DNA of 10,236 nt, taken from NCBI RefSeq assembly GCF_003334355.1, contig NZ_QOWP01000056.1, one strand, 5' to 3'. The translations under genes and the position numbers were made by a program. Positions 306 through 8,955 of this stretch are shown piece by piece. Each line of letters begins with the position of its first letter. Within the stretch, counting starts at the first letter, position 1. A model generated the notes under the pieces. The model worked only from the letters and a program-made list of their open reading frames with translations, had not been told where the DNA came from and did no database searches. This stretch comes from Escherichia coli (lineage in GTDB: Bacteria; Pseudomonadota; Gammaproteobacteria; Enterobacterales; Enterobacteriaceae).

Positions 306-1361
306 TTAAAACTGATAGGTCATGCCAACCGCGACAATATCATCATTATTAATATTCAATTTGTTATCGCTATCCAGTTGGTTGATTTTATAATCAACAA
401 ACGCTGACATATTTTTGTTGAAATAATACGTAGCCCCGACATCGATATAATTGACCAGATCTTCATCACCGATACCTTCAATATCTTTCCCTTTCGATAA
501 GACATAACCCAGCGATGGACGCAGACCAAAGTCAAACTGGTATTGAGCGACCGCTTCAAAGTTCTGTGTCTTATTGGCAAAGCCGCCAGTTATTGGCGTC
601 ATTTTGCGTGTTTCAGAATAAAAAGTTGCCAGATAAATATTATTGGCATCGTATTTCAGACCTGTAGCCCATGCTTCTGCACGCTTGCCTGTGCCACGGC
701 TTTGCAGGTTCTGCTCGTTGGTGCGATCTGAGTTGGTATAGGCCCCACTAATGGCGAAATCGCTGCCGCCAAAGTCATATGTCAATGACGTGCCGAAGCC
801 ATCGCCGTTTTGCTTTTTAACGTCGCGGTTTTCGTTTTTCCCTTGATATTGCAGGGTTAAGTTCAGGCCATCGATAACGCCGAAGAAGTCGGTGTTCCGA
901 TACGTCGCCAGACCGCTGGCGCGTTTGGTCATAAAGTTGTCGGTCTGCGCCGAGGAGTCGCCACCAAATTCCGGGAACATATCGGTCCAGGCTTCCACGT
1001 CATACAACGCGCCCAGGTTACGACCATAATCGAAAGAACCCAAATCTTTATATTTCAACCCGGCAAAAGCGAGACGCGTTTTTTGCTGTGCAGTATCACT
1101 CTCTGCTTTATTACCGGCAAACTCTGCTTCCCAACGACCATAACCAGTCAGTTGATCGTTAATTTGTGTTTCGCCTTTAAAACCAAAACGGATATAACTC
1201 TGGTCGCCATCTTTACTGTCGTTATCACTCATATAATGCATGGCTTTAACTTTGCCATAGACATCCAGTTTATTACCGTCTTTGTTATATATTTCTGCGG
1301 CCTGTACGGATGCAGATGCCACAATGCCCATCACCACTAATGCCAGAGTGCTCTTTTTCAT
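306..1361 (-). CDS. phoE: Outer membrane phosphoporin PhoE
   Basis: 351-aa ORF; signal peptide [21 protein letters not shown], porin-type C-terminal ...VGMTYQF. Sequence recognised as E. coli PhoE. Start placed at the second ATG (1359-1361), which has AGGA 6 nt upstream; the ORF track starts 2 codons earlier at 1367. Confidence 0.96.
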
Positions 1362-1442
1362 TTTCATTCCTGATTTTAATTAACGCGCGAATATTCAGCG
1401 GGAGAGTCCCGTTGAAAACAGGAAAGTTTTTAACCTAAGATT

Positions 1443-1648: not shown

Positions 1649-2752
1649 ATGAGTGACAGCCAGACGCTGGTGGTAAAACTCGGCACCAGTGTGCTAACAG
1701 GCGGATCGCGCCGTCTGAACCGTGCCCATATCGTTGAACTTGTTCGCCAGTGCGCGCAGTTACATGCCGCCGGGCATCGGATTGTTATTGTGACGTCGGG
1801 CGCGATCGCCGCCGGACGTGAGCACCTGGGTTACCCGGAACTGCCAGCGACTATCGCCTCGAAACAACTGCTGGCGGCGGTAGGGCAGAGTCGACTGATT
1901 CAACTGTGGGAACAGCTGTTTTCGATTTATGGCATTCACGTCGGGCAAATGCTGCTGACCCGTGCTGATATGGAAGACCGAGAACGCTTCCTGAACGCCC
2001 GCGACACCCTGCGTGCGTTGCTCGATAACAATATCGTTCCGGTAATCAATGAGAACGATGCTGTCGCTACGGCAGAGATTAAGGTCGGCGATAACGATAA
2101 CCTTTCTGCGCTGGCGGCGATTCTGGCGGGTGCCGATAAACTGTTGCTGCTGACCGATCAAAAAGGTTTGTATACCGCTGATCCGCGCAGCAATCCGCAG
2201 GCAGAACTGATTAAAGATGTTTACGGCATTGATGACGCACTGCGCGCGATTGCCGGTGACAGCGTTTCAGGCCTCGGAACTGGCGGCATGAGTACCAAAT
2301 TGCAGGCCGCTGACGTGGCTTGCCGTGCGGGTATCGACACCATTATTGCCGCGGGCAGCAAGCCGGGCGTTATTGGTGATGTGATGGAAGGCATTTCCGT
2401 CGGTACGCTGTTCCATGCCCAGGCGACTCCGCTTGAAAACCGTAAACGCTGGATTTTCGGTGCGCCGCCTGCGGGGGAAATCACGGTAGATGAAGGGGCA
2501 ACTGCCGCCATTCTGGAACGCGGCAGCTCCCTGTTGCCGAAAGGCATTAAAAGCGTGACTGGCAACTTCTCGCGTGGTGAAGTCATCCGCATTTGCAACC
2601 TCGAAGGCCGCGATATCGCCCACGGTGTCAGTCGTTACAACAGCGATGCATTACGCCGTATTGCCGGACACCACTCGCAAGAAATTGATGCAATACTGGG
2701 ATATGAATACGGCCCGGTTGCCGTTCACCGTGATGACATGATTACCCGTTAA
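1649..2752 (+). CDS. proB: Glutamate 5-kinase (proline biosynthesis)
   Basis: 367-aa ORF beginning [19 protein letters not shown]..., recognised as E. coli ProB. The track ORF begins at an upstream TTG (1562); the ATG at 1649 matches the known N-terminus. Confidence 0.96.
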
Positions 2753-2763
2753 GGAGCAGGCTG

Positions 2764-4017
2764 ATGCTGGAACAAATGGGCATTGCCGCGAAGCAAGCCT
2801 CGTATAAATTAGCGCAACTCTCCAGCCGCGAAAAAAATCGCGTACTGGAAAAAATAGCCGATGAACTGGAAGCACAAAGCGAAATCATCCTCAACGCTAA
2901 CGCGCAGGATGTTGCTGACGCGCGTGCCAACGGCCTTAGCGAAGCGATGCTTGACCGTCTGGCACTGACGCCCGCACGGCTGAAAGGCATTGCCGACGAT
3001 GTGCGCCAGGTGTGTAACCTCGCCGATCCGGTGGGGCAGGTAATCGATGGCGGCGTACTGGACAGCGGCCTGCGTCTTGAGCGTCGTCGCGTACCGCTGG
3101 GGGTTATTGGCGTGATTTATGAAGCGCGCCCGAACGTGACGGTTGATGTCGCTTCGCTGTGCCTGAAAACCGGTAATGCGGTGATCCTGCGCGGTGGCAA
3201 AGAAACGTGTCGCACTAACGCTGCAACGGTGGCGGTGATTCAGGACGCCCTGAAATCCTGCGGCTTACCGGCGGGTGCCGTGCAGGCGATTGATAATCCT
3301 GACCGTGCGCTGGTCAGTGAAATGCTGCGTATGGATAAATACATCGACATGCTGATCCCGCGTGGTGGCGCTGGTTTGCATAAACTGTGCCGTGAACAGT
3401 CGACAATCCCGGTGATCACAGGTGGTATAGGCGTATGCCATATTTACGTTGATGAAAGTGTAGAGATCGCTGAAGCATTAAAAGTGATCGTCAACGCGAA
3501 AACTCAGCGTCCGAGCACATGTAATACGGTTGAAACGTTGCTGGTGAATAAAAACATCGCCGATAGCTTCCTGCCCGCATTAAGCAAACAAATGGCGGAA
3601 AGCGGCGTGACATTACACGCAGATGCAGCTGCACTGGCGCAGTTGCAGGCAGGCCCTGCGAAGGTGGTTGCTGTTAAAGCCGAAGAGTATGACGATGAGT
3701 TTCTGTCATTAGATTTGAACGTCAAAATCGTCAGCGATCTTGACGATGCCATCGCCCATATTCGTGAACACGGCACACAACACTCCGATGCGATCCTGAC
3801 CCGCGATATGCGCAACGCCCAGCGTTTTGTTAACGAAGTGGATTCGTCCGCTGTTTACGTTAACGCCTCTACGCGTTTTACCGACGGCGGCCAGTTTGGT
3901 CTGGGTGCGGAAGTGGCGGTAAGCACACAAAAACTCCACGCGCGTGGCCCAATGGGGCTGGAAGCACTGACCACTTACAAGTGGATCGGCATTGGTGATT
4001 ACACCATTCGTGCGTAA
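2764..4017 (+). CDS. proA: Gamma-glutamyl phosphate reductase (glutamate-5-semialdehyde dehydrogenase)
   Basis: 417-aa [35 protein letters not shown]..., recognised as ProA. AGGAG 2751-2755 precedes the ATG; 11-bp gap after proB indicates an operon. Confidence 0.96.
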
Positions 4018-4022
4018 ATAAA

Positions 4023-4088
4023 ACCGGGTGATGCAAAAGTAGCCATTTGATTCACAAGGCCATTGACGCATCGCCCGGTTAGTTTTAA
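4023..4088 (+). terminator. Long-loop stem structure downstream of proA followed by a short U-run; possible proBA terminator overlapping the thrW promoter region
   Basis: ACCGGGTGATGC (4023-4034) pairs with GCATCGCCCGGT (4067-4078): 12 bp with one G-U, 32-nt loop, then TAGTTTTAACC. The loop is too large for a classic terminator, so this is weak. Confidence 0.3.
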
Positions 4089-4131
4089 CCTTGTCCACCG
4101 TGATTCACGTTCGTGAACATGTCCTTTCAGG

Positions 4132-4207
4132 GCCGATATAGCTCAGTTGGTAGAGCAGCGCATTCGTAATGCGAAGGTCGTAGGTTCGACTCCTATTATC
4201 GGCACCA
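4132..4207 (+). tRNA. thrW: tRNA-Thr (anticodon CGU)
   Basis: 76-nt sequence GCCGATATAGCTCAGTTGGTAGAGCAGCGCATTCGTAATGCGAAGGTCGTAGGTTCGACTCCTATTATCGGCACCA with encoded CCA; anticodon loop carries CGT; matches E. coli thrW. Confidence 0.96.
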
Positions 4208-4224
4208 TTCAAACATCTCCCCAA

Positions 4225-4245
4225 GTCTACTAAAGTCTTTCAAAA
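4225..4245 (+). repeat. Direct repeat copy 1 (GTCTACTAAAGTC + YYTCAAAA) between thrW and int; candidate integrase arm-type or accessory-factor site
   Basis: 13-bp core GTCTACTAAAGTC at 4225-4237 is identical to 4288-4300; flanking CTTTCAAAA vs CCCTCAAAA. Confidence 0.7.
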
Positions 4246-4287
4246 CCCCTTATAATCCGCGTATTAAAGCCCCGTTCGTCTTTTGAC

Positions 4288-4308
4288 GTCTACTAAAGTC
4301 CCTCAAAA
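4288..4308 (+). repeat. Direct repeat copy 2 (GTCTACTAAAGTC + YYTCAAAA)
   Basis: Identical 13-bp core, 63 bp downstream of copy 1. A perfect TATAAT hexamer (4251-4256) lies between the two copies. Confidence 0.7.
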
Positions 4309-4372
4309 TCTACGGTCAGATGGGGGTACTTATGGGGGTATTTGCTGTTCGGTTTAGTGGAGGTACCCCCAA

Positions 4373-5587
4373 GTGAAACTCAATGCCCGTCAAATAGACA
4401 CAGCCAAGCCAAAAGAGAAGGCTTACAAGCTGGCCGATGGTGGCGGTTTGTATCTCTTGGTAAAACCTAATGGAGGTAAATACTGGCGACTTAAATATCG
4501 TGTAGCTGGTAAAGAGAAGCTATTGGCACTAGGTGTGTATCCTGAGGTTACTCTAGCCGATGCTCGGGCAAAACGTGAAGATGCGAAAAGAGGTATCGCT
4601 GGTGGTATCGATCCGATGGAAGCGAAACGAGAGGAAAAGATTGCCCGGGAAACGCAGTTAAACAACACCTTCAAAGATATTGCCCTTGAGTGGCACAGCA
4701 GCAAATTAAAAAAATGGTCTGCTGGTTATGCTTCAGACATCCTCGAAGCCTTCAACAAAGATGTGTTCCCTTACATTGGCAAAAAACCAATCGCCGAAAT
4801 CAAACCACTTGAACTTCTGAATGTGCTGCGGCGCATTGAGGGGCGCGGTGCTACAGAAAAAGCCAAAAAAGTGAGGCAGCGGTGCGGGGAAGTTTTCCGC
4901 TATGCAATAGTCACTGGTCGCGCAGAGTATAACCCTGCACCAGACCTTACTAGCGCGATGCAAGGCCATGAATCTAATCATTACCCTTTCCTTACAGCCA
5001 AAGAATTACCTGATTTTTTCAAGGCATTGTCCAGTTACTCAGGAAGCGCATTGGTTGTTATGGCGGCTCGTCTACTGATTATCACAGGCTTGCGGACTGG
5101 CGAACTACGTGGCGCATTATGGGATGAAATTGATTTCAACAAGGCTCTCTGGGAGATACCCGCTTCACGTATGAAAATGCGGCGGCCTCATATTGTGCCA
5201 TTGTCTGAGCAGGCTCTTTCGCTTATTGGGAAGATTAGAGAAATAACAGGCAATTACCCTCTTATGTTTCCCGGGCGCAATGATCCAAGGAAAACAATGA
5301 GTGAGGCCAGCATAAACCAAGTGTTTAAGCGCATTGGCTACGCTGGACGTGTAACTGGTCATGGGTTCCGGCACACTATGAGTACGATTTTGCATGAGCA
5401 GGGCTATAACACCGCGTGGATAGAAACGCAGCTCGCTCACGTTGATAAGAACTCAATTCGTGGCACATACAACCATGCGCAATATCTGGATGGAAGGCGG
5501 GAGATGCTTCAATGGTATGCCGACTATATGGATTCTCTCGAGCATGGCGGAAATGTGGTGCATATGGTGTTTGAAAAACACGCATGA
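4373..5587 (+). CDS. Site-specific tyrosine recombinase, P4-type integrase family
   Basis: 404-aa ORF with GTG start, GGAGG 4359-4363. N-terminus KLNARQIDTAKPKEKAYKLADGGGLYLLVKPNGGKYWRLKYR is typical of the P4-family integrase N-terminal arm-binding domain; C-terminal GHGFRHT...RGTYNHAQY carries the H-x-x-R and catalytic Tyr motifs. Sits immediately 3' of a tRNA. Confidence 0.92.
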   Translation: MKLNARQIDTAKPKEKAYKLADGGGLYLLVKPNGGKYWRLKYRVAGKEKLLALGVYPEVTLADARAKREDAKRGIAGGIDPMEAKREEKIARETQLNNTFKDIALEWHSSKLKKWSAGYASDILEAFNKDVFPYIGKKPIAEIKPLELLNVLRRIEGRGATEKAKKVRQRCGEVFRYAIVTGRAEYNPAPDLTSAMQGHESNHYPFLTAKELPDFFKALSSYSGSALVVMAARLLIITGLRTGELRGALWDEIDFNKALWEIPASRMKMRRPHIVPLSEQALSLIGKIREITGNYPLMFPGRNDPRKTMSEASINQVFKRIGYAGRVTGHGFRHTMSTILHEQGYNTAWIETQLAHVDKNSIRGTYNHAQYLDGRREMLQWYADYMDSLEHGGNVVHMVFEKHA

Positions 5588-5840
5588 AACAACTGGACAA
5601 GTATACAGAGGTTTACTAAAGTATAGGGGAGTAGATTGATAAAAACTCACAGAGGATTACTATTTAACAGTTAGCCCTGGAGAAGGGCAATCGCTCTTTT
5701 AACAACGAAGATGGAATCTTCTACGCAGCTGAAAAGCTGGATGCTCTTTAACAGCCTTTGGTGCTTTCCTGATGCAGGAAAGAATAGGGATACATGCACC
5801 TTTACAATGCATGTAATGATTCATCCATGAGGCTGCGGAT

Positions 5841-5863
5841 CGCTGACAAAGCGCAATTGCTCT
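5841..5863 (+). repeat. 23-bp direct repeat copy 1 (CGCTGACAAAGCGCAATTGCTCT) with palindromic GCAATTGC core; candidate operator
   Basis: Identical to 5954-5976. Part of a 26-bp imperfect dyad TGACAAAGCGCAA|TTGCTCTTTAACA. The right arm GCTCTTTAACA recurs at 5743-5753 and, with one extra T, at 5692-5704. Confidence 0.8.
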
Positions 5864-5953
5864 TTAACATTGATGTGGGCGGGATGGTTCGTCCCGCAGT
5901 GACCGATAGATTTCTATCGGGAAACATACAATGATTCAAATATGAATCTACGG

Positions 5954-5976
5954 CGCTGACAAAGCGCAATTGCTCT
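5954..5976 (+). repeat. 23-bp direct repeat copy 2 (CGCTGACAAAGCGCAATTGCTCT)
   Basis: Perfect copy 113 bp downstream of copy 1. Similarity extends upstream imperfectly (ATGAGGCTGCGGAT vs ATGAATCTACGG). Confidence 0.8.
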
Positions 5977-6238
5977 CTTGCCTGCCCACCATGCCCTGAA
6001 AAAGGGCGTTCTTTAAAACTACTGGATGTCACGCCTAATAGCGTGATCCTGCCGAAATGCAGGGTAGCTCTACCCTTGTGGAGCAAACAAACCAAAACAA
6101 TCTGACTATCTTTTATAAAAGACCGCAATATGTTTTTCATATTGTGGTCTTTGGCGTATTCGACATTTGATGCAAATAAAACTCTCGCCATTCGTTGCAG
6201 GAGGGAGTTATTGCGTCATTAGTACAGGATATTAATAA

Positions 6239-6442
6239 ATGGCTAATTACAATTCATTAATTCGTCTCTCTGAAGTTCAAAGGCGAACTGGTTATAGCAA
6301 AGCATGGATTTATCGTCTTATTAGTCAGGGGAGGTTCCCTAAACAGGTAAAAATTGGAAGTCGGGCAATTGCTTTTGTTGAGTCTGAAATAGATGAATGG
6401 ATTGAGAAGTGTATATTAGAATCTAGAGACGAGGTGGCCTGA
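6239..6442 (+). CDS. alpA: AlpA-family phage regulatory protein (Xis/Vis-like winged-helix DNA-binding protein)
   Basis: 67-aa ORF MANYNSLIRLSEVQRRTGYSKAWIYRLISQGRFPKQVKIGSRAIAFVESEIDEWIEK...; helix-turn-helix segment and E-I-D-E-W motif characteristic of AlpA/Vis family; typical position downstream of a P4-type integrase. Confidence 0.85.
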   Translation: MANYNSLIRLSEVQRRTGYSKAWIYRLISQGRFPKQVKIGSRAIAFVESEIDEWIEKCILESRDEVA

Positions 6443-6873
6443 TGGAAAAGAAAAACCGCCCATTACAGGCGGCTAATTCAGATATTCGCGTATCTGATGT
6501 TACGCCCCTGACAAAATCCCTTCAAGCACCAAAGCGCACACCGAAAAAGCATCGTGCCAGAGTCTATATGCTGCGTACTGGTATAGAGGGATGGACAGAA
6601 AATGACATTCTTCGCTACTGCCGTCTGTCTTCTGGTCGTAACTATGCAACAGAGTTAGAACGCCAGCTTGGAATCACTCTGGAGCGTATCGACGAAAAGA
6701 ATCCTGATGGTATCGGAACACACCTTCGCTACCGTTTCTCCTGCCGTGGTGATGTTCTGAAAGTGATCACTCATGTTAACCATCTTGCGAGCATAAATGA
6801 TCACAACGGACTTTCTCAGCAGGAAATTGCCGACATTCTGAAACTCTACCCGGACGCGTTTAACGCCGCCTAA
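6442..6873 (+). CDS. Hypothetical protein (143 aa), basic N-terminal tail; function unknown
   Basis: ATG overlaps the alpA stop (TGATG); GAGGTGG SD at 6431-6437. No family recognised. Confidence 0.7.
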   Translation: MEKKNRPLQAANSDIRVSDVTPLTKSLQAPKRTPKKHRARVYMLRTGIEGWTENDILRYCRLSSGRNYATELERQLGITLERIDEKNPDGIGTHLRYRFSCRGDVLKVITHVNHLASINDHNGLSQQEIADILKLYPDAFNAA

Positions 6874-6885
6874 CGGAGACTGAAA

Positions 6886-7719
6886 ATGAACATCGAAAAA
6901 AGCAGATTAATTTCTGAGGCCGCCCCTCATCTGAACGCCTCTCTGGGCACAATTAACGGTAATGAATTTGCCGCAATTGTCCCGGTTATTCCTGGTCATA
7001 TCGGTGGGCGTGAAACCAATATTGTTAGCGCAAAAGCGTTACACAAAGCGTTGGGCGTGGGAAAAGACTTCTCTACATGGATCACTGATCGCATCTCTGA
7101 ATATGACTTCACCATTGGGCACGATTACTCAGTCCATAAAACAATTTCCCCAAATTTGGGGAAAAGCCCGAATGGCGCGGCTTACAGCAAGATTAAGCAG
7201 TCTGGCAGACCCGGCAAAGACTATCTGTTAAGTGTCGGAATGGCGAAAGAACTGGCAATGATCGAACGCAATGATCAGGGTCGCGCTATCCGCCGTTATT
7301 TCATCCAGTGCGAGGAAGAATTACAGCGTAGCGTGCCTGAAATCGCCGCCCGCTATCGTCGCCAGCTAAAAGCCCGTATCAGTGCCGCAAACAACTTTAA
7401 GCCAATGTGCGATGCGCTGAATATGGCCCGTGCCGAGATGGGTAAAACGACGCAGCAACACCACTACACAAACGAGAGCAATATGATTTCTCGTATCGTT
7501 CTTGGTGGGCTAACTGCTAAGCAGTGGGCGCGGATAAATGGCTATTCTGGCGAACCTCGCGACCATATGAACGCAGAACAGCTTGAGCACCTCTCATATC
7601 TCGAAAGCACCAATATCACGTTAATTGATATGGGCATGGAATATGAGCAGCGCAAAGGAGAACTCACCCGCCTGTCGCAACGCTGGCTCGCCAAGCGTCT
7701 GGAGGTGGTCAATGTCTAA
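6886..7719 (+). CDS. Phage antirepressor-like protein (AntA/KilAC-type N-terminal domain), 277 aa
   Basis: GGAGA SD 6875-6879. Motifs ...AKALHKALGVGKDFSTWITDRISEYDF... and ...DYLLSVGMAKELAMIERNDQGRAIRRYFIQCEE... resemble the AntA-type antirepressor N-terminal domain as I recall it. Confidence 0.8.
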   Translation: MNIEKSRLISEAAPHLNASLGTINGNEFAAIVPVIPGHIGGRETNIVSAKALHKALGVGKDFSTWITDRISEYDFTIGHDYSVHKTISPNLGKSPNGAAYSKIKQSGRPGKDYLLSVGMAKELAMIERNDQGRAIRRYFIQCEEELQRSVPEIAARYRRQLKARISAANNFKPMCDALNMARAEMGKTTQQHHYTNESNMISRIVLGGLTAKQWARINGYSGEPRDHMNAEQLEHLSYLESTNITLIDMGMEYEQRKGELTRLSQRWLAKRLEVVNV

Positions 7720-7894
7720 GCCAACAGGAACACCACAACCACAAAAACGCTACAAAGATGCCCACGGAGCACTCGTTACTGTCGAAAGCGTGTCTCACAA
7801 CCGAGTGACGTTTTATCGCGACGGGTATCAATCGCCATGCGTACAACCGCTGGCGCGTTTCATGAAGGAGTTCGCGGAGGTTAACAAATGCTAA
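7712..7894 (+). CDS. Small phage-type protein (60 aa); tentatively DUF4222-like
   Basis: ATG 7712 with GGAGGTGG 6 nt upstream, overlapping the upstream stop (ATGTCTAA). Translation [60 protein letters not shown]. The track ORF starts further upstream (7625) inside the preceding gene; the internal start is better supported. Confidence 0.65.
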   Translation: MSKPTGTPQPQKRYKDAHGALVTVESVSHNRVTFYRDGYQSPCVQPLARFMKEFAEVNKC

Positions 7895-8955
7895 CCGTCC
7901 AGAAGAAGACATTTTCACTGGCTGGTATGTCGCCAAAATCCAGCAATATGACGGCAAAGTCAGGCATTAATACAGCAGATACAAGCAAAGTTTATCATTT
8001 GCTGGTGGTCGGAACGGATGCCTTAACCATATCAGAAATCTCGGGCGATGATATTAGCATTGAGAAGGTCAGCGGCTGCGCCAGAAAATTTCTGGTCGTA
8101 GATGATGTCTTCCGCTCGTGTAGTGACTCCACAAAAACATTCGTCCACGCGCGTGACGTTAACGAAATGAGCGCGATGTACTGTGCATCTGGTGCTTCCA
8201 ATAGCGAGTTTTCGGAGTCCATAAAAAAGAGCTTGCCGTTATGCGGCAACACGGTTTATGGTTATAAGGCACCTCATAAAACGGGTGCCGGGATTGGCGT
8301 CCTGGTAAATCGAATGGCGACATATGACGCGCCGAGCGTCTTTTTTTATGTCGTAGGTCTGACTCACCCATTTTTTGGGCGTTGGTGTATAATCCAGCGC
8401 CTTTGTCAATCAATGGTGGCTCAGGCAGGGGCTTCTTCGGAAGCGCCGGTATCCATTCGAGCCGGTTACGCCAACCCTGTCTGGGCTACCACCAGCGAAA
8501 TTGGCGTTTCCGGTGGTAGCGTTACATGCTATCGAATGGAGGCTGCCACATGCTGGCTACTACCCCTACCCAAAAACCGCAATTTATCTGGATTATCGCC
8601 GCAGTTCGCCGCGATTGCCCGACAATTACCGCCAAAATTCATCATATTGCTGCCGAGTCTGAACGCGATGCTCGCCGTTCTCTGGTGCGCGATCACGTCT
8701 GCTTTTTTGCTGGTCGTATCCGCATGGAGGTGGCACATGATTAAAACCTACGATGTGCATATGGATCCCCTCGAACGCACAAGCCAGATCATCACACTGA
8801 CAGAAGTGATTAACGACATTCTGGTGAGCAACTCTCCCTCACGAGACGAAAGACTGAAGGCGTTACTCGCGATATTGGATCTCGCCGTTCGTGACGTTCA
8901 TTTCCTGCTGGAAGGTGGCGAAATGCCAGGAAAAACGGGGGCAACCAATGAATAA
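7888..8955 (+). CDS. Unresolved 355-codon open frame: real N-terminal gene start at 7888; frame stays open through the structured RNA region, the Icd-like gene (other frame) and the 8737 small gene
   Basis: ATG 7888 with GGAGG 7 nt upstream and ATGCTAA overlap with the upstream stop supports initiation. No stop in this frame until 8953-8955. Residues ~176-215 ([35 protein letters not shown]) resemble what databases label ash family protein, but this stretch coincides with strong RNA hairpins. The true C-terminus is unknown. Confidence 0.3.
8326..8347 (+). terminator. Intrinsic-terminator-like element inside the 7888 frame
   Basis: GACGC (8326-8330) / GCGTC (8336-8340) 5-bp GC-rich stem, 5-nt loop, followed by seven T (8341-8347). 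A second T6 run is at 8371-8376. Confidence 0.35.
8388..8393 (+). promoter_or_regulatory. Consensus -10 hexamer TATAAT, TG immediately upstream; possible promoter for the structured RNA/icd leader
   Basis: GTGTATAAT at 8385-8393. No convincing -35 at 17 bp spacing, so weak. Confidence 0.25.
8428..8520 (+). ncRNA. Candidate c4/CI-type antisense regulatory RNA (three consecutive hairpins)
   Basis: HP1 8431-8444: GCTTC/GAAGC stem with TTCG tetraloop. HP2 8445-8466: 6-bp stem (2 wobble) with a 10-nt loop carrying TCCATTCGA (8452-8460). HP3 8485-8520: 9-bp stem CTACCACC.../...GGTGGTAG plus 6-bp inner stem, TTGG loop. The HP2 loop is exactly complementary to TCGAATGGA (8532-8540), which overlaps the GGAGG SD of the Icd-like gene, and 8/9 complementary to 8310-8317. 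Confidence 0.4.
8550..8744 (+). CDS. Host cell division inhibitor Icd-like protein (64 aa)
   Basis: ATG 8550 with GGAGG 8538-8542. Translation [64 protein letters not shown]; the F-x-W-x-x-x-A-V-R-R ... E-x-x-A-R-R ... F-A-x-R pattern matches my recollection of Icd-like proteins of P1/P4-type elements. The track start at 8526 lacks an SD. Confidence 0.6.
   Translation: MLATTPTQKPQFIWIIAAVRRDCPTITAKIHHIAAESERDARRSLVRDHVCFFAGRIRMEVAHD
8737..8955 (+). CDS. Small acidic hypothetical protein (72 aa), independently initiated
   Basis: ATG 8737 with GGAGGTGG at 8727-8734; overlaps the icd-like stop as ATGATTAA. Translation [72 protein letters not shown]. Same frame as the 7888 ORF. Confidence 0.55.
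   Translation: MIKTYDVHMDPLERTSQIITLTEVINDILVSNSPSRDERLKALLAILDLAVRDVHFLLEGGEMPGKTGATNE

Follow-up and report, generated by a model that had tools for sequence, protein, structure and literature searches.

A predicted winged-helix protein encoded directly after alpA in an EcCIMP1-like phage-inducible chromosomal island

Introduction

Phage-inducible chromosomal islands (PICIs) of Gram-negative bacteria are widespread gene-transfer agents whose regulation is partly understood. AlpA is the known activator, no repressor has been identified, and a 2018 paper left undecided whether a global repressor exists in these islands (PMC6092414). Here we analyse the open reading frame (ORF) that directly follows alpA in a 10,236-nucleotide (nt) stretch of Escherichia coli DNA (contig NZ_QOWP01000056.1; hereafter the window), which comprises the phoE-proBA-thrW chromosomal region and an EcCIMP1-like PICI. 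EcCIMP1 itself, a PICI of E. coli MP1, is a satellite that the P22-like phage Kapi1 mobilises (Pick, Stadel & Raivio, ISME J 2025, PMC11773190). In that paper, alpA is a helper-induced master activator that acts on its own promoter and without which neither excision nor transfer takes place; induction, excision and transfer were shown to depend on the helper for EcCIMP1 of strain MP1, not for the variant in the window. The searched text characterizes int, alpA, alpA_1 and a PerC-like gene, tests EcCIMP1_002 and discusses _017 to _019, and it neither mentions nor discusses the gene after alpA.

The window and EcCIMP1 share the thrW integration site, the att core TCCTATTATC and the AlpA accession, and they align at 94.7–97.5% nucleotide identity. 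Their gene order is also alike, running int, alpA, the ORF, an anti-repressor, DUF4222, an ash/Icd region and a TOPRIM-DUF927 primase, and the ORF products differ at 3 of 143 residues. The window is nonetheless a variant: within the int-alpA spacer (5588–6238), for example, positions 5760–6008 do not align with EcCIMP1 of strain MP1.

Two further satellites offer looser parallels. The left operon of P4 runs vis, a 137-aa ORF/CI RNA region, epsilon, orf151, cnr, alpha and crr, and shares with the island an AlpA/Vis-type protein, a small ORF, a helper anti-repressor, a C4/CI-type antisense RNA, a primase-helicase and origin repeats. The ORF protein, however, has no detectable homology to any P4 product, and P4 has no winged-helix gene translationally coupled to vis. 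In the Vibrio satellite PICMI115 (Nat Commun 2024, PMC10803314), the conserved gene up1 directly follows alpA and belongs to the helper-induced early regulon alpA-up1-prim; we liken it to the ORF by position only.

The ORF product is an ordinary kind of protein, a small winged helix, in a known kind of element, and has not itself been studied before. The element is already published; added weight comes from the strict conservation of the ORF with AlpA, from the open state of Gram-negative PICI regulation and from a conserved hairpin at the 5' end of the gene. What is new here is a fold, a defined family and a genetic context for the product of the most conserved gene at a module boundary, which would be made together with AlpA.

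The gene is coupled to alpA across related satellites

The junction and the parts of the gene lie in the window as follows.

6239–6442, plus strand: alpA, 67 aa (Pfam Phage_AlpA, E 8.5e-20; WP_000035054.1, the accession of EcCIMP1 alpA in E. coli MP1)
6432–6438, plus strand: Shine-Dalgarno (SD)-like GAGGTGG of the coupling junction, read from sequence
6440–6442, plus strand: TGA stop codon of alpA, read from sequence
6442–6444, plus strand: ATG start codon of the ORF, read from sequence
6442–6873, plus strand: the ORF under study, 143 aa, with its TAA stop ending at 6873 (PGAP 'PM1773 family' in one record, 'hypothetical' elsewhere)
6442–6540, plus strand: codons 1–33, basic low-confidence N-terminal tail (predicted local distance difference test score (pLDDT) 49–61; isoelectric point (pI) 10.4–11.5)
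6541–6846, plus strand: residues 34–135, predicted winged-helix domain and two C-terminal helices (AlphaFold2 structure)
6454–6474, strand unassigned: GC-rich hairpin, core CCGCC-cattaca-GGCGG at 6456–6472 (terminator scan)

The start codon of the ORF shares the last base of the alpA stop codon (junction GAGGTGGCC-TGATG-GAA), and the SD-like GAGGTGG is placed 4–10 nt upstream of the start. The same 1-nt stop/start overlap, written TAATG or TGATG, recurs in 51 of 62 related loci with an upstream ORF, and a GAGG-N-TRATG junction is kept in 51 of the 62. The remaining 11 loci have gaps of 0–10 nt, save one 4-nt overlap and one outlier. Among 48 upstream ORFs scanned, 45 matched Pfam Phage_AlpA at E ≤ 0.001. 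The coupling to alpA is a conserved trait and no accident.

To follow the gene across elements, we assembled 56 loci from GTDB contigs representing one genome per species (the search alignment held 13 closer sequences) and added contigs with distant relatives. In the resulting ~70 loci from Enterobacterales, Orbaceae and Pseudoalteromonas, the ORF directly follows an AlpA gene wherever upstream sequence is present, with the integrase 1–3 kb further upstream of the AlpA-type ORF; the one exception to both is locus L010. The association reaches relatives of 25–50% identity and extends to a satellite with a D5_N/DUF5906 primase and capsid genes (L071), a satellite with an Sf6-type small terminase (L072) and a minimal element consisting of alpA, the ORF, a 52-aa ORF and a primase (L073). 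An earlier note on this DNA, drawn from the letters of the window alone, had described a 143-aa protein starting on the last base of the alpA stop and had proposed its translational coupling to AlpA. Start and length are confirmed from the sequence, and both the overlap and the co-occurrence with AlpA hold across islands as just described. The outcome that would have refuted the note, an ORF not conserved beside alpA in related elements, is clearly not what the loci show.

L010 contains a borderline relative of 111 aa (27% identity, E 5e-4) that lies two genes after alpA, behind terS. This locus is a ~4-kb mini-island (2273–6484) beside a tmRNA gene, with the order int, 231 aa, alpA, 79 aa, small terminase (Terminase_2), the 111-aa relative and 143 aa; the relative overlaps terS, not alpA. 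On the downstream side of the ORF, the next gene encodes an anti-repressor or Rha-like protein, of differing families, in 45 of 52 loci. Plasmid-database matches with a listed upstream gene all adjoin alpA, and several are small circular records. Two of these from PLSDB, L002 (NZ_CP148430.1, a 12,152-bp circular 'plasmid') and L003 (17,779 bp), are non-mobilisable and carry the ORF; L002 also holds the anti-repressor, the primase, the PerC-like gene and an integrase. Both look like excised circular satellites deposited as plasmids.

ORF 6442–6873 is a genuine conserved gene. In comparisons with relatives, the ratio of nonsynonymous to synonymous divergence (dN/dS) of the core is 0.07–0.15 at a saturating dS of at least 1.1, indicating purifying selection. 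Homologues form 611 clusters when grouped at 90% identity and leave 92 representatives when reduced to 50%, with complete members of 105–175 aa. The exact protein occurs on at least 1000 contigs, its DNA is present in 648 of 5426 complete E. coli genomes (~12%), and the family is also found in many Enterobacterales. We found no relative in 50,697 phage records and no significant match among predicted viral structures (BFVD), which suggests that the protein is satellite-specific.

The product is predicted to be a winged helix with a basic arm

AlphaFold2 divides the protein into a flexible tail and a compact core. Block-mean pLDDT is 51, 49 and 61 over residues 1–30 and rises to 82–95 over residues 31–140, with core values mostly near 90. 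Residues 1–40 have a pI of 11.5, with 11 lysines and arginines against 3 aspartates and glutamates. The amino-acid sequence of the tail is poorly conserved, yet its synonymous change is reduced. The earlier note had envisaged a basic, disordered tail of about 40 residues followed by a compact domain; composition, confidence profile and fold bear this out, except that the tail is nearer 33 residues long.

Secondary-structure assignment of the model (DSSP) gives helices at residues 35–45, 53–60 and 68–76, wing strands at 80–86 and 93–99, and helices at 102–119 and 126–134. This is the winged-helix arrangement of H1-H2-H3-S2-W-S3, a three-helix bundle with a two-stranded beta-hairpin wing, and the model superposes on solved winged-helix proteins. 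The closest solved folds are a putative Methanosarcina regulator (3r0a), TFE-alpha, proteins of the ArsR/PadR/MarR type and GrlA; the matches also include winged helices that bind RNA (SelB, ribosomal eS10 and S25e). Invariant or near-invariant residues are K35, G50, T52, S64-G65-R66-N67-Y68, E73, R74, R82, N87, G92, H94 and Y97, most of which map to the turn into helix 3, to helix 3 itself and to the wing, the usual nucleic-acid-binding face. Generic winged-helix transcription regulators likewise combine H1-H2-H3 with a beta-hairpin wing and concentrate their conserved residues on recognition helix and wing. The model and its conservation pattern point to a small, probably DNA-binding, winged-helix protein with a basic flexible arm.

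Family searches agree in large part with the earlier statement that no family is recognisable. The ORF protein has no match in PHROG and no significant match in Pfam, and no model of NCBIfam release 20.0 matches it or ten distant relatives. Pfam HTH_91 'winged helix' scores E 0.03 for the ORF protein, and two relatives reach E ≤ 0.001. A family name does exist in one annotation: WP_000412541.1, at a position 100% identical to the window, is called 'PM1773 family protein' in NZ_CM185152.1 and 'hypothetical protein' in the other listed records. The naming model is presumably newer than NCBIfam release 20.0 or not a hidden Markov model, and a literature search for PM1773 returned no paper using the name. 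Foldseek against AFDB50 retrieved only uncharacterised gammaproteobacterial proteins, including 'Hemophilus-specific proteins' of Pasteurellaceae. Weak hits to the P22 tailspike head-binding domain also appeared (Pfam Head_binding, E 0.1; PDB, E 0.18–1.9, residues 101–141), a reading that is tempting because the island carries P22-like ejection genes. These single-sequence matches were gone when the family profile was used, and we took them as chance.

The gene heads the right-hand module of the island

Comparing elements with different integrases placed the ORF on one side of a recombination boundary. Between L013 and L015, the ORF protein is 99% identical, Int 26% and AlpA 28%; comparisons of L013 or L017 with L015 or L018 give 96–99% for the ORF protein, 28% for AlpA and 26–27% for Int. 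In 35 locus pairs the ORF protein is at least 80% identical while AlpA falls below 35% (21–34%), and AlpA and Int co-vary with each other. At the DNA level, homology between elements with unrelated int-alpA starts 10–40 nt upstream of the ORF ATG and runs rightward into the primase, and the breakpoint in the window falls at ~6400–6442 (seen with L013, L015, L018, L025 and L057). Homology that starts just 5' of the ATG, together with the shuffling of int-alpA, assigns the ORF to the right-hand side. It is the first gene of a conserved right-hand (early/replication) module and abuts a swappable int-alpA module, while the anti-repressor is a replaceable cassette between the ORF and the primase.

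Among neighbours, the primase is best tracked by ORF protein identity (Spearman 0.61, against 0.40 for AlpA; the pairs are not phylogenetically independent). The origin repeats behave differently. Just after the primase in L001 (27501–27622), outside the window, four tandem GTTGGTTCA repeats and inverted copies form an iteron array that is the probable origin. Related satellites bear other iterons, among them TGAGACAACA, ACGGGTTA, TGGGATAA and AGTGTGTCA, and iteron type tracks the C-terminal 250 residues of the primase. ORF copies that are 99% identical go with TGAGACAACA or TGAACCAAC iterons, and copies only 51–53% identical share one iteron type. That near-identical ORF proteins occur beside ~27%-identical AlpA and Int, and beside differing iterons, speaks against three roles: excisionase, binder of one specific origin, and partner of particular AlpA alleles.

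A hairpin is conserved at the 5' end of the gene

An A-run (6445–6455) precedes the GC-rich hairpin in the window; together they span codons 2–11, the hairpin itself covering codons 5–11 and lying at +15 to +31 of the ORF mRNA. A perfect hairpin of at least 5 bp occurs within the first 48 nt in 39 of 52 distinct 5' ends, compared with 5% of control windows and 5.6% of shuffles. The stem varies by lineage such that pairing is kept and the protein altered: CCGCC/GGCGG (encoding NRPLQAA) becomes CCACC/GGTGG (NHPSQVA), other stems are CCCGC/GCGGG (KTRTEAG), and Gilliamella has CCCTC/GAGGG with a 17-nt loop. Among sequences in the main register, 6 have exchanged a single G-C pair for A-U by a double change. 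The tail has diverged less at synonymous sites (dS 0.22–1.2) than the core (dS 1.1–2.5), and codons 1–27 show low synonymous codon diversity, a measure confounded by relatedness.

In 38 of 39 variants the minus-strand RNA folds more stably (mean −13.2 versus −8.2 kcal/mol), and on that strand a U-rich tract comes after the hairpin. Given this stability and the U-tract, the structure resembles an intrinsic terminator pointing at alpA. A search for a conserved sigma-70-like antisense promoter found no positionally conserved site within 1.4 kb and none in the window. The hairpin may serve as an antisense terminator that insulates alpA, may act in the mRNA to make the ORF dependent on translation of alpA, or may belong to the recombination junction.

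Weighing possible functions

We tentatively favour, as something close to an even call, the reading that the protein is an early, AlpA-co-expressed DNA-binding co-regulator of the satellite. Helper phage would turn on the alpA promoter, and AlpA would then boost its own promoter, as in EcCIMP1. Ribosomes ending alpA would reinitiate at the overlapping AUG and yield the protein in fixed proportion to AlpA, early in induction. From the fold and the placement of its conserved residues, we infer that helix 3, the wing and the basic arm would together bind nucleic acid, DNA being the likeliest kind, and that the protein would co-regulate the induced programme at a site or partner common to these satellites rather than at individual att sites, origins or AlpA alleles. 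The partnership in regulation suggested by the earlier note survives here as co-expression with AlpA; a physical partnership does not fare well, as set out below.

Several results weigh against a co-regulator of this kind. Upstream of alpA, no 6- to 12-mer that could serve as an operator is shared across 54–58 loci, only A/T-rich low-complexity words. The shared downstream k-mers that were mapped correspond to primase coding sequence, the ash/C4 region or Chi-type octamers, giving no DNA target. Not every PICI carries the gene: it is missing after alpA in EcCICFT073, the prototype PICI of E. coli, which AlpA alone induces (PMC6092414), so the protein is not a universal requirement of AlpA-driven induction. 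Finally, its positional analogue up1 is dispensable for activation and transfer of the Vibrio PICMI (PMC10803314).

The putative binding residues are invariant while att, AlpA allele, primase and iterons vary, a pattern that also fits a target outside the element. The protein might accordingly act on the helper phage or the host, by interference, by helper derepression together with the anti-repressor, or in superinfection immunity. The anti-repressor or Rha-like gene that comes next in 45 of 52 loci is in keeping with such a role, as is the immunity against superinfection by Kapi1 that EcCIMP1 confers, for which the responsible gene is unmapped (PMC11773190). We nevertheless consider this unlikely. 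Different helpers are to be expected in Enterobacterales, Orbaceae and Pseudoalteromonas, which makes a single conserved helper target unlikely; L071, L072 and L073 lack an anti-repressor neighbour; and PADLOC, which we used to screen for anti-phage defence, returned no match. An accessory role in excision, as a recombination directionality factor or a DNA-bending architectural protein working with Int and AlpA, is improbable. Many excisionases are small basic winged-helix proteins, the gene adjoins alpA and lies near int, deletion of alpA abolishes EcCIMP1 excision (PMC11773190), and a third small protein, iolg, is needed for excision in PICMI (PMC10803314). A directionality factor should, however, track its integrase, and the ORF protein does not: copies 99% identical sit beside 26%-identical Int and 28%-identical AlpA, which co-vary with each other instead, and the module breakpoint parts the ORF from int-alpA. 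EcCICFT073, moreover, excises with AlpA and Int and without this gene. The part in excision that the earlier note had offered finds no footing in these comparisons, and only a non-specific architectural role would survive them.

Control of replication, with the protein as an origin-binding or copy-number factor of the primase-helicase, as Cnr is with alpha in P4, is very improbable. Identity does track the downstream TOPRIM-DUF927 primase best, the order vis/alpA, ORF, anti-repressor and onward to primase and iterons parallels the P4 left operon, and the iteron array of L001 lies just after the primase. Against this, iteron type is decoupled from the ORF protein and follows the primase C-terminus, so that replication control in the sense of origin recognition, also raised at the outset, is not upheld. 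The protein further accompanies D5_N/DUF5906 primases and occurs in an element without a primase in the stretch seen, and it shows no similarity to P4 Cnr, ORF151 or the 137-aa ORF, or to the island primase (hhalign probability 0.1% against P4 ORF106; BLASTP E 0.76 against the island's own primase). We see a remote chance that the protein binds RNA, either as an autoregulator on its own 5' hairpin or as a factor acting on the C4/IsrK immunity RNAs of the island. The conserved hairpin at +15 to +31, the fold matches to SelB, eS10 and S25e, and the position of IsrK and C4 1.4 kb downstream in the same operon would suit such a protein. Lineages differ in stem and loop sequence, however, yet share the putative binding residues; the opposite strand forms the stronger hairpin and is also where the U-tract lies; and C4/IsrK were found in just 2 of 11 protein-bearing loci scanned for RNA families. 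A link to the C4/IsrK immunity module was rejected on that count, the sole C4-alpA complementarity, of 8 nt, being at chance level. Equally remote is an obligate physical partnership in which regulation or excision would be carried out by a heterocomplex with AlpA. Genes for subunits of one complex are commonly arranged like this, strictly adjacent and translationally coupled 1:1, but near-identical copies sit beside AlpA alleles only 21–34% identical (the 35 locus pairs above), and AlpA works alone in EcCICFT073 (PMC6092414) and PICMI115 (PMC10803314). A model of an AlpA-ORF fusion, built from 38 aligned sequences paired by locus, resolved two domains with confidence; its predicted template modelling score was 0.51, with no confident packing and pLDDT below 50 across linker and tail. 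This is a weak negative because the output holds no predicted aligned error or contacts.

A further reading is quite unlikely and would have wider reach: the protein and the hairpin at its own 5' end may together make up a control point, not described before, where int-alpA meets the rest of Gram-negative PICIs. The winged-helix protein may be a missing negative regulator that limits the positive-feedback loop of AlpA, or the hairpin may gate ORF translation or insulate alpA as an antisense terminator. If true, such a control point bears on how Gram-negative PICIs stay off and switch on. A model for negative feedback on an expression burst is Arc of the phage P22 immI region, a small DNA-binding protein encoded directly upstream of an anti-repressor gene in the same operon (arc-ant), as the ORF is in 45 of 52 loci. 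The likeness stops short of an Arc/Mnt-type autoregulator: Arc is a ribbon-helix-helix protein and the ORF product a predicted winged helix, no motif is shared upstream of alpA in the 54–58 loci, and some family members lack an anti-repressor neighbour. By excluding an allele-specific AlpA subunit, an excisionase and an origin binder as obvious roles, the analyses reduce the number of experiments needed. Unless an unusual function emerges, the protein will be a routine addition, one more small winged-helix regulator in a mobile element.

Other features of the window and related elements

The remaining features of the window, from the chromosomal flank into the island, are as follows.

306–1367, minus strand: phoE
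between phoE and proA in window order: proB
2764–4017: proA
4132–4207, plus strand: thrW, tRNA-Thr (CGT), the island integration site (ARAGORN; Rfam tRNA)
from 4191, within thrW: att core TCCTATTATC, a repeat located in the window and identical to the att core given for EcCIMP1 (PMC11773190)
4373–5587, plus strand: tyrosine integrase, of the left-hand swappable module (PHROG 1 integrase, E 2e-77; NCBIfam PRK09692; annotated integrase in genome records)
6886–7719, plus strand: AntA/AntB-type anti-repressor, starting 12 nt past the ORF stop (PHROG 5817 anti-repressor, E 1.2e-37)
3' of the anti-repressor: DUF4222 gene, 'ash family' region and small ORFs

Complete genomes show what comes next in the island: a TOPRIM-DUF927 primase-helicase of 918 aa, P22-like genes for DNA ejection, and a PerC-like gene. 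The island has the layout of a PICI, with a tRNA site and a co-oriented series from int and alpA to the primase, without a phage structural or lysis module, and the int-alpA-to-primase architecture is likewise present in the 56 GTDB loci.

The int-alpA spacer of the window contains a 129-aa minus-strand ORF (5802–6191) without a family match in PHROG or NCBIfam. Even with the threshold at E ≤ 1, the window gave no match to the Rfam 'int-alpA RNA' motif (RF02996), which lies between int and alpA in some relatives (L015, 4163–4226; L047, 6026–6095). In EcCICFT073 (L069, 11526–13053, of E. coli CFT073), alpA is followed by a long degenerate ORF, an anti-repressor remnant whose N-terminus resembles that of the window anti-repressor (NFAEIIPVISGLTGGSETNIV versus NEFAAIVPVIPGHIGGRETNIV).

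Downstream of the ORF, an IsrK small RNA (8269–8346, 67.1 bits) and a C4 antisense RNA (8409–8496, 79.5 bits) both score above Rfam gathering thresholds and sit 1.4–2 kb beyond the ORF in the same operon. The C4 loop UCCAUUCGA has complementary sites at 8310–8317 and 8532–8540. Both RNAs fall inside a 355-aa ORF (7888–8955) that PGAP calls 'ash family protein', where they underlie residues 106–233, the stretch matching PHROG 6928 'transcriptional repressor'. The 'ash family' annotation may therefore be largely a translated RNA immunity locus, as was historically the case with P4 cI.

Chi (GCTGGTGG) and a Chi-like octamer (CTGGCTGG) are enriched in enterobacterial satellites (L013, L015, L018, L020 and others) and absent from Gilliamella elements. 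Each is present at 4–12 copies per 7.8 kb, against 0–2 copies of CTGGCTGG per 5 kb of flanking chromosome. In the window, Chi or Chi-like octamers lie at 8001–8009 and 8488–8496.

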